IMG/VR virus record: IMGVR_UViG_3300009183_000050
Location: 1 to 64,000 of that record
Reading direction: 5' to 3' (one strand)
DNA: 64,000 nt
Source: a virus
The notes under the pieces were generated by a model, which saw nothing but the letters and a program-made list of their open reading frames with translations, was not told the DNA's origin and did not search any database. Shown one piece after another: positions 4,399 to 15,360 of the stretch (position 1 is the first letter of the stretch; each line of letters begins with the position of its first letter). The position numbers and the translations under genes are program-made.

Positions 4399-4742
4399 AA
4401 AACATAGTCGAGTTTCCGAAGAATAAGATATTCCGTGATGCGCCTGTGAACATAGAACTTATAGAAAAAGCCAAAGAAAAAGCACTTGCCAGTTTTGCAG
4501 ATTCGGTCGTTGAAACGATGATCGATAATCTACTCGAAGGCCTCGATAACTTCGGCCTCGATACTCAAGAAGAAACATTCATCAAAGATTTCAGTCTGAC
4601 CGTTGATGCAATCCGTGCAACCGTATATCGTTCATTGGGTATTCCACACCAACTACATGAGTTCATCGATGATAACGTCAAGTTGATCAATCGTATAACA
4701 GGTGAGATAATAGACTCTGATGAGGTTGACAGTAAAGATTAA
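4395..4742 (+). CDS. hypothetical protein
   Basis: ORF beginning NIVEFP. Confidence 0.7.
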   Translation: MKNIVEFPKNKIFRDAPVNIELIEKAKEKALASFADSVVETMIDNLLEGLDNFGLDTQEETFIKDFSLTVDAIRATVYRSLGIPHQLHEFIDDNVKLINRITGEIIDSDEVDSKD

Positions 4743-4754
4743 TTGCTATATAAT
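4726..4754 (+). promoter_or_regulatory. consensus sigma70 promoter TTGACA-N17-TATAAT for rnh
   Basis: Perfect consensus hexamers with 17-nt spacer. Confidence 0.85.
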
Positions 4755-4777: not shown

Positions 4778-5632
4778 ATGACAATCTTGATCGATCTAAA
4801 TCAGGTACTTATATCTAACCTGATGCAACAGATTAACTCAAATCCAAAAGTGAAGTTAGATGAGAATCTGATCCGACATATGGTTCTGAATAGCTTGCGT
4901 TCATACTCTAGACAGTTTCGATCCAAGTATGGTGAGATTGTTGTAGCCTGTGATAGCAAGAAGTATTGGCGCCGTGACGTATTTCCATTCTATAAAGCTC
5001 ATCGCAAGAAAGATCGTGAGAAGTCTGAGTTTGACTGGCACTTGATCTTCGAAACTCTCAATAAGATTCGTGATGAACTGAAAGAGAACTTTCCATATCG
5101 TGTTATCGAAGTGGAAGGTGCTGAGGCCGATGATGTGATCGGTGTGTTGACGGCTCGTCTTGCACCACATCAAGAAATTCTCATTCTGTCCTCAGATAAG
5201 GACTTTGTTCAGCTTCAGAAATATCCTAACGTCTCGCAATACAGCCCGATACTCAAGCGGTTTGTAAAGACTGAAGATCCACAGCAATACATCCGTGAGC
5301 ATATCATTCGCGGTGATCGTGGTGATGGCATTCCAAACTTCCTGTCACCTGATAATACCTTTGTGGCTGGTGAGCGACAGAAGGTTATCAGCAAGAAGAA
5401 GTTGACTGAATGGATTGATGCCGATCCAAAAGAGTTCTGCACTACGGATATTATGATGCGTGGCTATAGGCGTAACCAGATGTTGGTAGATTTAGACTAT
5501 ATACCAGAAGAGATCAAGATACAAATCGCGGTCTTGTATGATAGCATCAAACCAGCTAACAAGCAAAAGATGCTAACATACTTCATTGAAAACAGGTTGA
5601 AAAACCTAATCGAGGTAATAGATGAGTTTTAA
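4778..5632 (+). CDS. rnh: T4-type RNase H (5'-3' exonuclease)
   Basis: ILIDLNQ, YWRRDVFPFYKAHRKK, EADDVI, SSDKDF, GDRGDGIPN. Confidence 0.95.
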   Translation: MTILIDLNQVLISNLMQQINSNPKVKLDENLIRHMVLNSLRSYSRQFRSKYGEIVVACDSKKYWRRDVFPFYKAHRKKDREKSEFDWHLIFETLNKIRDELKENFPYRVIEVEGAEADDVIGVLTARLAPHQEILILSSDKDFVQLQKYPNVSQYSPILKRFVKTEDPQQYIREHIIRGDRGDGIPNFLSPDNTFVAGERQKVISKKKLTEWIDADPKEFCTTDIMMRGYRRNQMLVDLDYIPEEIKIQIAVLYDSIKPANKQKMLTYFIENRLKNLIEVIDEF

Positions 5633-6282: not shown

Positions 6283-6321
6283 TCATGCATTCCGTGCATG
6301 GTTGATATGCGAAAATAATAC

Positions 6322-6350
6322 TTGACCTCCGTTCCTAACCGTGCTATATT
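6322..6350 (+). promoter_or_regulatory. early sigma70 promoter TTGACC-N17-TATATT with A-rich UP element
   Basis: Intergenic; extended TG; GGAG SD downstream. Confidence 0.8.
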
Positions 6351-6381
6351 TACAGCATAAGTTGAGAACGGAGATTTTGTT

Positions 6382-7002
6382 ATGAGCATCACTAAGACAA
6401 CCCACAGCTACCAAGGTAGCGAATCAGTTTCGACCGCCGTCACCTCTGCGGTTGGTACCACCCTCAAGGTCTACTATGACTATGTTCAGGTCATGTCCGA
6501 TGAATGGGCTTCTACCCTACATGCCAAGTATTGGGACGGCGAGTTCGTCAAGACTGAAATTTGGGTTGATTCCGCCACTGTGGATGCGACTCCAGAGGTT
6601 CTGGCCGCTGTAGAGAACTTCTATTACAAACATGCGGTCGAGGCTTTGGTCGAGCAAGCCAAAGCGGAAGCACTGGCCATCAAGACTGAATCCGTTGTGA
6701 AGGTCGTTGCTGGCCGCGACAACAAAGGCGTGTCTGGTAAGGTCGTGGTTCAGATTGAACGCCCGTATGGCATGGGTTACCGCTCGGTGCTAGCCACCAA
6801 GCTTGGGATTGCTACCAGTGAAGATAAGCATAATGTGGTTGCCAAGAATGGCAAAACCTACAGTAACTATAAGGACGTGGTATGGGCATGGGCGCGGAAC
6901 GTAGTTCTGGTGTCTCCTCCTGAGCCCGACCTTTCTGGAGTTGAGGAGATAGCCCGTGACAAGGCGAAACGGTCACTTAAAGAAGTCTATAAAGCGGCGT
7001 GA
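6382..7002 (+). CDS. hypothetical early protein
   Basis: 206-aa ORF with GGAG SD. Confidence 0.75.
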   Translation: MSITKTTHSYQGSESVSTAVTSAVGTTLKVYYDYVQVMSDEWASTLHAKYWDGEFVKTEIWVDSATVDATPEVLAAVENFYYKHAVEALVEQAKAEALAIKTESVVKVVAGRDNKGVSGKVVVQIERPYGMGYRSVLATKLGIATSEDKHNVVAKNGKTYSNYKDVVWAWARNVVLVSPPEPDLSGVEEIARDKAKRSLKEVYKAA

Positions 7003-7114
7003 CATGCTAGCCAAGGCGCTCTCCAATGGCGCCTTCCACCAACGGATTGTGAAGTCTAAGAAGCTTTACAAACGCAAGCACCACAATAGTGGCATTCCTG
7101 CAACATTAGACTAA
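6956..7114 (+). CDS. small basic ArfA-like protein, 52 aa (not in ORF track)
   Basis: GAGGAG-N7-GTG start (alternative ATG 7004); MTRRNGHLKKSIKRRDMLAKALSNGAFHQRIVKSKKLYKRKHHNSGIPATLD. Confidence 0.6.
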   Translation: MTRRNGHLKKSIKRRDMLAKALSNGAFHQRIVKSKKLYKRKHHNSGIPATLD

Positions 7115-7142
7115 GGTCTAATCTGAATTATGCCGATTTTGG

Positions 7143-7170
7143 TTGCAATCTTCCGTGGTTAGTGTATATT
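7143..7170 (+). promoter_or_regulatory. early promoter TTGCAA-N16-TATATT
   Basis: Intergenic; GAGGAG SD downstream. Confidence 0.65.
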
Positions 7171-7204
7171 GTTCCTGTAAGTTAGTGATGAGGAGACATT
7201 CGAT

Positions 7205-7612
7205 ATGGCATTCATGAATCAAGAAAAGAAAGCGGCCCTTGCGCCTGCTATCAAAGCGGCCCTTAAAAAGTATGGTATTAAGGGTTCTCTCGCGGTTGAC
7301 AACTATTCGACTCTGGTGTTGAACATCAAGTCTGGTCCCATCGATTTCATTCAGAACTATAATGAGACCGTTGGTCAGCAACCTGGTGGTTTTCGTAACG
7401 GTAGCCCTGCTGCCAGTTGCATTCAGGTGAACCGTTACTGGTTCCGTGAACACTTCAGTGACAAGGCTAAGAACTTCTTGACCGAGGTCATTGAAGCCAT
7501 GATGAAAGGCAACCACAACAACAGTGATGCCAGTATCGACTATTTTGATGTTGGTTGGTATATCGATGTTAACATTGGTAAGTGGTCGAAACCATATATT
7601 TTGGAGCGTTGA
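7205..7612 (+). CDS. hypothetical early protein (LPD29-like)
   Basis: C-terminal NNSDASIDYFDVGWY motif; strong SD. Confidence 0.7.
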   Translation: MAFMNQEKKAALAPAIKAALKKYGIKGSLAVDNYSTLVLNIKSGPIDFIQNYNETVGQQPGGFRNGSPAASCIQVNRYWFREHFSDKAKNFLTEVIEAMMKGNHNNSDASIDYFDVGWYIDVNIGKWSKPYILER

Positions 7613-7613
7613 T

Positions 7614-7787
7614 ATGAGTAAGATGAAAGACTATCTGTTGGATATCCAGGAGTTGGTGATCAAAGCGATGTTGTCTGGTGCTAAGACCGACAATGATCTT
7701 TTTGCCTTCGTTCAGATGTATATTCCTGAAGCTACTGAAGGCACCGTCAAATATGCCACACAACAAATCTTCAAAGAAAACGCTTGA
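7614..7787 (+). CDS. hypothetical protein
   Basis: MSKMKDYLLDIQE; GGAG SD. Confidence 0.65.
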   Translation: MSKMKDYLLDIQELVIKAMLSGAKTDNDLFAFVQMYIPEATEGTVKYATQQIFKENA

Positions 7788-7811
7788 CTTCTCCACGGAA
7801 TGATATATAAT
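7784..7811 (+). promoter_or_regulatory. sigma70 promoter TTGACT-N16-TATAAT
   Basis: Near-consensus hexamers. Confidence 0.75.
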
Positions 7812-8857: not shown

Positions 8858-9162
8858 GTCAAGAAGATGATGACGTTGACGTATTAGAATACCTTGAGGA
8901 TGCATACTCGTTCTTGCAGGATCCTGCTATTGGTAAGGCTATCGACGAGATCAAGAAACTTCGCAAGGTTCGCAATGATCAGGCTAACATCCTTCGTCGC
9001 CTGACACCAGACAAGTTCCCTGATACATACTTCGTTCATTCAGGTCTAGGTGAGAAAGATAAGAATGGCATGCCTGAAAAATTGCTGGTATGCCCTGCAT
9101 ATGGAGTTGACTTCTCATACATATATGAGTATACTGGTAAAACAACTACAACGGAGTGGTGA
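8854..9162 (+). CDS. hypothetical protein
   Basis: ATGA overlap with previous gene. Confidence 0.6.
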   Translation: MSQEDDDVDVLEYLEDAYSFLQDPAIGKAIDEIKKLRKVRNDQANILRRLTPDKFPDTYFVHSGLGEKDKNGMPEKLLVCPAYGVDFSYIYEYTGKTTTTEW

Positions 9163-9163
9163 T

Positions 9164-9868
9164 ATGCTGAATAATCCATGGATAGCTACAGAAACCAGCC
9201 CTTATCAATACTATGATGCGGGGCTTAGAAAATATCTATTATCTGTATTCAATTATATGACGATGGCACTAAGTATTAGTGGTATTGTCGCCTATGCGGT
9301 TGGAGTCAGCCCAGAACTGATGCAGGCCATATGGGGAAGCCCCCTCAAGTGGCTGGTGATGCTGGCACCTATCGGTATGGCACTCGCCATAGGGTTTCTT
9401 ATCAATGATATGAAAACTCACACAGCTAAACTATGCCTAGCTATATTTGCAGGCCTGATGGGACTAAGCCTTAGTAGCATCTTTGCCGTGTTCACCATGG
9501 CATCTATCTCTCAGGTATTTTTTATCAGTGCAGCCACATTTGGAACCACTGCAATATGGGGGTATACCACTAAACGTGACCTTAGTAATTTTGGTTCGTT
9601 TCTAATGATGGGATTGATCGGTATCGTGATTGCTGGATTGGTCAACATCTTTCTACAAAGTAGTGTATTGCAGATGGTATGTAGTGCATTAGGTGTAGTG
9701 ATCTTCGTTGGATTTACAGCTTATGATATGCAACAAATCAAACAAGCATATTATGAAACAGTCGGCGAAGAAAGAGAGAAGTCCGGAGTGATAGGTGCAT
9801 TGAATCTATATCTTGACTTTGTTAATATCTTTACAAGCCTATTGAATCTCATCGGAGACAGGAAATGA
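9164..9868 (+). CDS. yccA: Bax inhibitor-1/YccA family membrane protein
   Basis: About 7 TM segments; YDAGLRKY, GYTTKRDLS, TAYDMQQIK, GALNLYLDFVNIF. Confidence 0.9.
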   Translation: MLNNPWIATETSPYQYYDAGLRKYLLSVFNYMTMALSISGIVAYAVGVSPELMQAIWGSPLKWLVMLAPIGMALAIGFLINDMKTHTAKLCLAIFAGLMGLSLSSIFAVFTMASISQVFFISAATFGTTAIWGYTTKRDLSNFGSFLMMGLIGIVIAGLVNIFLQSSVLQMVCSALGVVIFVGFTAYDMQQIKQAYYETVGEEREKSGVIGALNLYLDFVNIFTSLLNLIGDRK

Positions 9869-14842: not shown

Positions 14843-15022
14843 ATGAATATGACTTGGAAATTGTTCAGTGGTTTTGTAATCGGGTTTCTGTTTCTTCCAC
14901 TGATAGTGATGCTTGACAAATATGTAGGACCTGGAGCAGGATCCATCGCTATTGCTATGCTTGGAATGGGTATCTGCGTAGCGGCCTGTGTTTGGTTGAT
15001 TGAAAAGATGAGTAAACTCTGA
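14843..15022 (+). CDS. 59-aa two-TM membrane protein (not in ORF track)
   Basis: MNMTWKLFSGFVIGFLFLPLIVMLDKYVGPGAGSIAIAMLGMGICVAACVWLIEKMSKL; fills the gap before the tmRNA promoter. Confidence 0.55.
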   Translation: MNMTWKLFSGFVIGFLFLPLIVMLDKYVGPGAGSIAIAMLGMGICVAACVWLIEKMSKL

Positions 15023-15024
15023 GG

Positions 15025-15055
15025 TTGCCAACAGAGGCCACTTGTGATATAAATA
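15025..15055 (+). promoter_or_regulatory. composite promoter for ssrA: TTGCCA-N17-TATAAA overlapping late TATAAATA
   Basis: Both motifs visible directly upstream of the tmRNA. Confidence 0.7.
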
Positions 15056-15060
15056 TAGAT

Positions 15061-15360
15061 GCTAAGGTTGTTGATAATGACATAATATACGGAAGAGACC
15101 TCGGGGCAGTACCGAGCGGGTCCACCATAGATACATAGAAGGTTGTTGACCTTTTAAGGCAGTTAGCTAATGCCACCTGAGTAGAAGTCTCGGCTATGTA
15201 TCTTTGATGGGCCCGAAATAGAATCGATCTACGAGTAAAAGTCAGAGTAGACCAAGGCAAAACATAAATGCAGCAAACGATAACTTTGCATTTGAGACAC
15301 GCCTAGCGGCTTAATCTCATTGGGTATGGGTTCCACCTCGAAACAGAACGGGCCCACTTT
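15061..15360 (+). ncRNA. ssrA: circularly permuted (two-piece) tmRNA
   Basis: T-arm plus CGGGTCC-A-CCA ending 15127 precedes GGGCCCG at 15209 (7-bp acceptor stem with G3:U); tag ORF 15270-15314 AANDNFAFETRLAA*. Confidence 0.93.

Follow-up and report, generated by a model that had tools for sequence, protein, structure and literature searches.

The first 64 kb of the 140,865-bp IMG/VR virus record IMGVR_UViG_3300009183_000050 (CheckV completeness 85%), a 64,000-nucleotide stretch which we refer to as the window, contains a small gene at positions 6956-7114 on the plus strand. This open reading frame (ORF) of 52 codons, with a GTG start and a TAA stop, is a real, conserved gene that is found in the same syntenic position in related phage contigs. 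Profile comparisons place its product as a divergent, phage-borne member of the superfamily of the ribosome rescue factor ArfA, within the protein family phrog_20887, which overlaps both Pfam DUF7230 and Pfam ArfA. We consider it somewhat probable, at roughly 55%, that the mini-protein functions as a release-factor-dependent rescue adaptor for stalled ribosomes.

The mini-ORF has its own translation signals. A Shine-Dalgarno (SD) sequence, GAGGAG, was read from the sequence at 6943-6948 (plus strand), inside the coding sequence of the upstream gene, and is separated by a spacer of 7 nucleotides (6949-6955) from the GTG at 6956. The frame then runs to the TAA at 7112-7114, and its first part overlaps, in the +1 frame, the final 47 nucleotides of a 206-codon ORF at 6382-7002. 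The encoded protein is strongly basic, with 15 lysine or arginine residues, 4 histidines and 2 acidic residues among its 52 amino acids. A first-pass annotation, made from the sequence alone, had reported a 52-residue basic ORF with GAGGAG 7 nucleotides before GTG, and the sequence agrees exactly. Both the GTG and the GAGGAG are retained, the latter identically, in three close relatives (contigs L016, L027 and L028). The start codons of more distant syntenic copies (L002, L020, L023 and L029), either ATG or GTG, also lie within the 3′ end of the upstream gene. Public gene callers skipped the mini-ORF in L023, L027 and L028, and only a 36-residue version was called for P0001. This shorter call begins at the in-frame ATG of codon 17 (7004-7006, plus strand), one nucleotide past the upstream stop. 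The ATG is not conserved: the position of Met17 is occupied by isoleucine in L002 and by proline in L027, and because of this proline ATG 7004 cannot be the general start. We rejected it as a start codon, as both the family hidden Markov model (HMM) and the PHROG alignments begin upstream of it. At the other end, a C-terminal Thr-Leu-Asp directly before the stop is retained in L023, L027 and L028, which indicates that the mini-gene is translated as far as its own stop codon.

The gene belongs to a large family. A pattern scan of IMG/VR with peptide patterns taken from the ORF returned 11 viral contigs, which have in common Asn-Pro-x-Ala, an aromatic residue and then KSKKLYKRK. Profile A1, which consists only of viral sequences and was built from those of the 11 contigs, matched 416 clusters at E≤1e-3 among 1.84 billion representative proteins, giving a family of at least 416 clusters at 50% identity. 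The best 150 listed representatives have a median length of 52 residues, with 99 of the 150 no longer than 60. Ala19, Tyr38 and Arg40 are each present in 149 of these 150, and the position of ArfA Phe25, which is Phe27 in the window, is phenylalanine, tyrosine or tryptophan in 145; the window has Asp-Met where the wider family has Asn-Pro. A family HMM built from 85 sequences, with the window excluded, gave the window ORF 61 bits (E 1.2e-17); of the 3,815 segments between stop codons in the phage genome, the runner-up reached 6.6 bits. The first-pass annotation had listed a lack of conservation in related phages as an outcome that would speak against its reading; this score and the syntenic copies in related contigs contradict it. 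Among named collections, phrog_20887 (“unknown function”) matched residues 13-42 of the window ORF (E 1.4e-5, 25.9 bits) and 85 of 86 relatives, the best at E 3.6e-19. DUF7230 (PF23876) was matched by 39 of the 86 relatives at E≤1 (best 1.6e-7) and not by the window ORF alone (model cut-off 27 bits), and NCBIfam gave no meaningful match for any family member. Searches with the single sequence recovered little. A tblastn search of the 52-residue ORF against GenBank phages returned chance-level matches only (E≥2), megablast of 6300-7700 against the same phages found no match, and a word-indexed homologue search found solely the near-identical 36-residue call P0001. Scanning with the pattern KSKKLYKR across 185,579 species genomes led to no confirmed relative.

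Some members differ in how their reading frame begins. In the A/T-rich contigs L003, L005 and L007-L012, the ArfA-like frame is open far upstream through a Lys/Arg-rich stretch, and no ATG, GTG or TTG occurs before the methionine of Asn-Pro-Met-Ala, yet the preceding Asn-Pro is conserved. These members may have a start of their own, be fused to an upstream gene, or arise by slippage from one.

Remote homology of the family, the window mini-ORF included, to ArfA is supported by several sequence comparisons. We searched profile A1 and a broader profile, A2, against 177,635 distinct PDB sequences. The six best matches of A1 were all ArfA constructs (E 0.03-0.09), and with A2 these six came first again, now at E 1.9e-4 to 6.8e-4, followed by a match at E 3.6. 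ArfA was the sole rescue factor returned at E≤10, with no BrfA chain, whilst a phmmer search of the window ORF alone against PDB found nothing. The Pfam ArfA model (PF03889) was matched by 32 of 86 family members scanned singly. Two of the ten members checked individually, P0203 (37.5 bits) and P0252 (26 bits), score above its curated cut-off of 25.5 bits, and both lack the GKG loop of ArfA. Alignment of A1 by hhalign to a comparison set (A3) of 12 ArfA sequences, all enterobacterial, gave a probability of 83%. By BLASTP, the window ORF is 38% identical to E. coli ArfA over 45 residues (E 0.005, as a single comparison) with a gap at GKG, reproducing the alignment that had first been made by eye, with the gap where it had been placed. 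To control for composition, the family HMM was run on 120 true ArfA sequences, which scored a median of 21.9 bits, and on reversed and shuffled ArfA, which reached at most 3.4 and 2.5 bits, respectively. A language-model look-up listed DUF7230 and ArfA clusters among the nearest named neighbors (scores 0.91-0.92), a result that lends weak support only. The E-values of the link are modest, 2e-4 at best against PDB. The other outcome that had been set against the first reading, the lack of any profile similarity to ArfA, is contradicted, since ArfA proteins are the only PDB matches of the family profiles. The ArfA-like reading thus stands for the family, on PDB profiles, Pfam, hhalign and controls; it does not extend to a Pfam ArfA match for the window ORF by itself.

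The alignments can be read against the known structures of ArfA on the ribosome. ArfA residues 15-31 contact release factor 2 (RF2), with a short strand at residues ~26-30 that extends the RF2 β4-β5 sheet; Phe25 sits in a pocket of RF2 Val198 and Phe217; Leu19, Leu24 and Phe25 meet Trp319 of the switch loop; and Pro23 packs on A1492 and A1493 (PMC5378476, PMC6299226). Residues 31-48 lie in the empty mRNA tunnel, where truncation at Asn47 is tolerated (PMC5378476, PMC6299226) and no single tail residue is essential (PMC6299226). In hhalign and HMMER alignments, residues 13-32 of the mini-protein (6992-7051, plus strand) correspond to ArfA 11-30, the RF2-contacting minidomain and A-site strand. 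Residues 33-43, the basic tail KSKKLYKRKHH (7052-7084, plus strand), correspond to ArfA Lys31-His45, the part in the empty mRNA channel, minus the three-residue GKG loop. The first-pass annotation had noted that the GKG(S) segment is lacking, which the alignments resolve as a three-residue deletion. Window Phe27 is equivalent to ArfA Phe25, Gln29-Arg30 to Gln27-Arg28, Lys33 to Lys31, Lys35-Lys36 to Lys33-Lys34, Tyr38 to Tyr39 and Arg40-Lys41 to Arg41-Lys42, so that counterparts of ArfA Arg28, Lys31, Lys33, Lys34, Tyr39, Arg41 and Lys42 are all present in this alignment. In the hydrophobic patch, Leu22 and Phe27 are present, with Ala26 at the position of Leu24 and Gly25 at that of Pro23. The tail comprises Lys33-His43 and nine further residues, and therefore runs past the equivalent of ArfA Asn47, the minimum active length. 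The annotated length had been likened to that of active truncated ArfA, and this agrees with what we find: the mini-protein is as long as mature ArfA, and the family median is also 52 residues.

The control of the gene appears to differ from that of bacterial arfA. Expression from a non-stop mRNA is a hallmark of ArfA; here, the ORF ends in an in-frame TAA and the C-terminal Thr-Leu-Asp motif is conserved up to it. RNA folding of 6930-7210 was no better than that of shuffled sequences (z 0.14), showing no arfA-type hairpin in this segment, and we rejected a regulatory hairpin of that type on this score. The own stop codon together with the lack of a hairpin means that the non-stop control of arfA, which depends on transfer-messenger RNA (tmRNA), is absent. 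An escape from such control had been proposed from the stop codon at first reading, and the TAA at 7112-7114 and the fold score bear it out. A sigma-70-type promoter-like site lies on the plus strand at 6322-6350, upstream of the 206-residue gene (TTGACC, 17 nucleotides, TATATT with TG; 10/12 in a consensus scan). Relatives whose 206-residue proteins share about 50% identity retain both of its boxes (-35 and -10) as well as an A/T-rich stretch upstream. The next promoter-like site, at 7143-7170 (plus strand; TTGCAA, 16 nucleotides, TATATT; 9/12), is weak and putative, and stands ahead of a gene at 7205-7612. The two sites fit as the bounds of an early two-gene unit that would be read by the host polymerase, and the conserved sigma-70-type promoter is in keeping with the early transcription unit that had been assigned to the gene before. 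The phage also carries a tmRNA gene 8 kb downstream of the mini-gene: Rfam found a circularly permuted, alpha-type tmRNA at 15021-15358 on the plus strand (alpha_tmRNA, 91.9 bits, E 1.1e-23; tmRNA_permuted, 79.5 bits), which ARAGORN did not report. No SmpB and no RF-1/ArfB domain were found in the 85%-complete phage record, and with no RF-1 domain of the phage's own, any release activity would need a host factor.

Taken together, we propose the following mechanism, in which ribosome binding, release-factor recruitment, expression timing and benefit to the phage are inferred. The early promoter at 6322-6350 would drive a two-gene message, on which the mini-gene would initiate at GTG 6956 from its own GAGGAG in the 3′ end of the upstream gene. 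In a ribosome that has stalled at the 3′ end of a truncated message, the empty mRNA entry channel would take up the basic tail, from residue 33 to 43 and beyond. Residues ~13-32 in the A site would then present a class-I release factor of the host (RF2 being the most likely) with a strand and the hydrophobic patch of Leu22 and Phe27, and that factor would hydrolyze the peptidyl-tRNA without a stop codon. With a stop codon of its own and without an arfA-type hairpin, the gene would presumably be expressed constitutively during infection, in parallel to the phage tmRNA and not only upon failure of trans-translation. The likely benefit would be the recycling of ribosomes trapped on messages that have been cut by phage- or defense-induced RNA cleavage.

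Several observations weigh against this proposal. The window ORF alone matched no Pfam model, even at E 10, and so falls below the PF03889 curated cut-off of 25.5 bits; a six-frame search of the phage record with PF03889 likewise found nothing. The KGKGS motif of ArfA has become KSKK-L through the three-residue deletion, and Pro23, which contacts A1492/A1493, and Leu24 are replaced by glycine and alanine. In the closest syntenic relatives the equivalent of Phe25 is glycine (L002), leucine (L023) or cysteine (L026). This variability in the closest clade points to a relaxed or different release-factor contact there, and it is our chief reservation about assuming that RF2 is held exactly as it is by ArfA. 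Finally, the alpha-type tmRNA hints at a link to the Alphaproteobacteria, in which arfA was found in 0 of 2,376 genomes (PMC11633108), so compatibility with the host RF2 is a presumption of the model. The same substitutions would suit a protein that occupies the mRNA channel by its ArfA-like tail without recruiting a release factor, acting as a plug or a modulator. Such a protein might, for example, sit on vacant 30S or 70S particles and in this way bias initiation or shield ribosomes while the host is being shut off. Conservation in the family is highest at the tail positions, the decoding-center and RF2 contacts are altered in the window, and the Phe25 equivalent varies between F, G, L and C in the closest clade. 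However, the N-terminal half (Asn-Pro-x-Ala-x-x-Leu and then the aromatic residue) is, in the wider family, conserved to the same degree as the tail, and aligns with the RF2-contacting half of ArfA. A pure plug would block translation of the phage as well, and the Francisella factor ArfT works with no hydrophobic residue where ArfA has Phe25 (PMC6299226). We therefore regard occupation of the channel without release-factor recruitment as unlikely, and retain RF-dependent rescue as the preferred reading.

The conserved neighbor of the mini-gene is the 206-residue gene (6382-7002, plus strand), whose product contains a KOW/SH3-like β-barrel at residues ~99-177. The AlphaFold2 model of this protein, with a pLDDT (predicted local distance difference test) of 91.5, shows an N-terminal β-sandwich, a long helix, the barrel (99-177) and a C-terminal helix. 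By VIA-align, residues 99-177 resemble the KOW domains of eS4, DSIF/Spt5 and NusG with Z scores of 6.9-7.2, which are below the level the tool considers safe. Inspected by eye, residues ~105-125 look like the KOW motif, which is rich in glycine and lysine. Pfam gave no KOW match in the protein at E≤1, and Foldseek with the model gave no match at E≤0.001, its weak matches being mostly to ribosomal-protein chains. At least 150 homologs exist in large phage contigs, none of them named, and tblastn against GenBank phages found no match. The gene order RNase H, DUF6433, small gene, 206-residue gene and overlapping mini-ORF is preserved in L002, L016, L020/L021, L023, L027, L028 and L029, and the mini-ORF occupies the same overlapping position in at least eight related T4-like contigs. 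The 206-residue proteins of the syntenic contigs range from 97% to ~49% identity to that of the window. Counting the window, the gene adjoins the ArfA-like ORF in 9 of 11 distinct loci. In L026 the order is inverted, with the mini-gene immediately upstream of the homolog, and L024 and L025 carry the 206-residue gene without the mini-gene. In L016, a nearly identical strain, a TGG has changed to TGA 16 codons before the normal end of the 206-residue gene (L016:380-420). The premature stop falls just upstream of the mini-gene SD, and the mini-ORF is intact. No homolog of the 206-residue gene was found in the 3-6 kb flanks of the family members in L003-L013, L019, L022 and Roseobacter phage CRP-13; the pairing is specific to this T4-like clade.

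Such an association raises the possibility that the mini-protein and the KOW-like protein form a two-component device directed at the ribosome or at RNA, and do not act through RF2-mediated release. The overlapping, probably coupled arrangement in 9 of the 11 loci and the adjacency kept under inverted order in L026 would agree with this, as would the occurrence of KOW-like barrels in ribosome- and RNA polymerase-binding proteins. Yet many family members have no 206-residue homolog in their flanks and two loci carry the 206-residue gene alone. As each gene occurs without the other, neither needs the other in general. The KOW fold match is, moreover, only at Z ~7. This makes a paired device of this kind quite improbable. 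Doubtful to a still greater degree is a generic basic nucleic-acid-binding peptide with a compositional or convergent likeness to ArfA, as has been argued for ArfT. The protein is indeed short and very basic, and the best E-value of the link against PDB is 2e-4. But reversed or shuffled ArfA scores ~0 bits with the family HMM against a median of 22 for true ArfA, no other basic PDB protein comes close (next match E 3.6), some members exceed the curated Pfam ArfA threshold, and the alignment spans both halves of ArfA in the same order. Lastly, the 47-nucleotide +1 overlap and the omission of the mini-ORF by several gene callers might suggest a fortuitous ORF, or one that extends the 206-residue protein at its C-terminus by frameshifting into the +1 frame, but the large and mostly free-standing family, the conserved SD and GTG, the separate upstream ORF in L026 and the intact mini-ORF behind the early stop in L016 make this extremely improbable. 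Further grounds for rejecting a frameshift fusion are that inspection of the overlap by eye showed no slippery site and that copies in other places are free-standing.

The surroundings of the gene give some indication of the phage that carries it. The record has 41% G+C and 17 tRNA genes. By its RNase H/flap endonuclease (4778-5632), which shares 56-58% identity with the enzymes of cyanomyophages and Methylophilales phage Melnitz (Kyanoviridae), the phage is a T4-like myovirus of the marine and freshwater group. The cultured relative nearest by RNase H is Melnitz (56% identity), which has no ArfA-like gene. Melnitz is reported to encode such a two-piece tmRNA (PMC9004378), and near its RNase H gene a homolog of ribosomal protein S21 adjoins a tRNA (L017, MZ577097.1, 35389-35661). 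In the window, sigma-70-type promoter-like sites at 4726-4754 (a perfect TTGACA, 17 nucleotides, TATAAT), 6322-6350, 7143-7170 and 7784-7811, all on the plus strand, precede successive short groups of genes, a layout that resembles the early region of T4-like phages. Just upstream of the promoter of the 206-residue gene, at 6283-6320, is an inverted repeat of CATGCA and TGCATG separated by 5-6 nucleotides. The repeat is conserved between the window, L027, L028 and L029 (alignment A5), and may be a terminator or an operator. Further downstream, an ORF at 9050-9868 (plus strand) encodes a 272-residue multi-pass membrane protein which resembles the BAX-inhibitor/YccA family by eye and has no PHROGs match.

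ArfA is regarded as a narrowly distributed back-up that is kept silent by tmRNA. It is found in Gammaproteobacteria, some Betaproteobacteria and a few Bacillus species, and the gene was present in 742 of 15,259 genomes (PMC11633108). The placement of the mini-gene in a large ArfA-related phage family implies that many phages may carry their own means of releasing stalled ribosomes. Tentatively, and at less than even odds, we suggest that phrog_20887/DUF7230 is a large, unrecognized family of constitutive phage ArfA-type rescue factors, which would free stalled ribosomes also in hosts that lack arfA, such as Alphaproteobacteria. The stalls would arise where phage nucleases or RNA-cleaving defense have truncated the message, and in the phage studied here the factor would be delivered with a phage tmRNA. 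In the T4-like clade, it may work with the co-translated KOW-like 206-residue protein. If the phage family is active, ArfA-type rescue would be far more widespread than thought, and mobile, and phages would use it without the tmRNA-linked control. Ribosome rescue would then be a phage-supplied function beside phage tmRNAs, with possible consequences for host shut-off and for how phages evade defense that cleaves mRNA or tRNA. A PHROG and a Pfam DUF that have no functional name would gain one, and natural variants that lack the KGKGS loop or Phe25 would offer a means of dissecting RF2 recruitment. Available E. coli genetics and reconstituted translation would allow the rescue idea to be tested directly.

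Comparison with known systems places the mini-protein nearest to E. coli ArfA (YhdL; PF03889; PDB 5MDV, 5U4I, 5H5U, 5MGP). The two share the length of mature ArfA (52-55 residues) and the order of a hydrophobic N-terminal half, an A-site strand with phenylalanine and a Lys/Arg tail, and have in common the equivalents of Leu20, Phe25, Gln27, Arg28, Lys31, Lys33, Lys34, Tyr39, Arg41 and Lys42. Unlike E. coli ArfA, the mini-protein has no GKG loop and no KGKGS, carries glycine for Pro23 and alanine for Leu24, and scores below the Pfam threshold. Its gene is phage-encoded, overlaps an upstream gene and has its own stop, without the RNase III/terminator hairpin or tmRNA-dependent control of arfA. 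Other small RF-dependent rescue proteins, ArfT of Francisella, the only source from which it is reported, and BrfA of Bacillus, likewise have a basic tail for which sensing of the empty mRNA channel has been proposed or demonstrated. Among phages, an annotated ArfA occurs in Pseudoalteromonas phage J2-1 (ATN93434.1), a 51-residue protein that also lacks the GKG loop and whose gene also overlaps an upstream gene. Salmonella phage Arash gp99c (L032:1417-1641) is an ArfA homolog annotated as “ribosomal protein L2”, and Pseudomonas phage pf16 contains a homologous ORF (L031:1486-1638) which is not annotated on that strand. The J2-1, Arash and pf16 homologs resemble the mini-gene in being phage-borne, of mature-ArfA length and provided with their own stop codons, but the canonical KGKGSY persists in those of Arash and pf16, which also match E. 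coli ArfA directly by tblastn; neither is true of the window ORF. Citromicrobium phage RXM g10 is annotated as ArfA, and is known to us from that annotation only (PMC8953757). Members of phrog_20887 in Roseobacter phage CRP-13 and in the Acinetobacter T4-like phages ZZ1, Ac42 and 133 are annotated as hypothetical. A literature search that was not exhaustive turned up neither experiments on a phage ArfA nor a publication that mentions DUF7230. By these comparisons, the mini-gene appears best described as a phage-borne, constitutively terminated, loop-less relative of ArfA in a large unnamed family.

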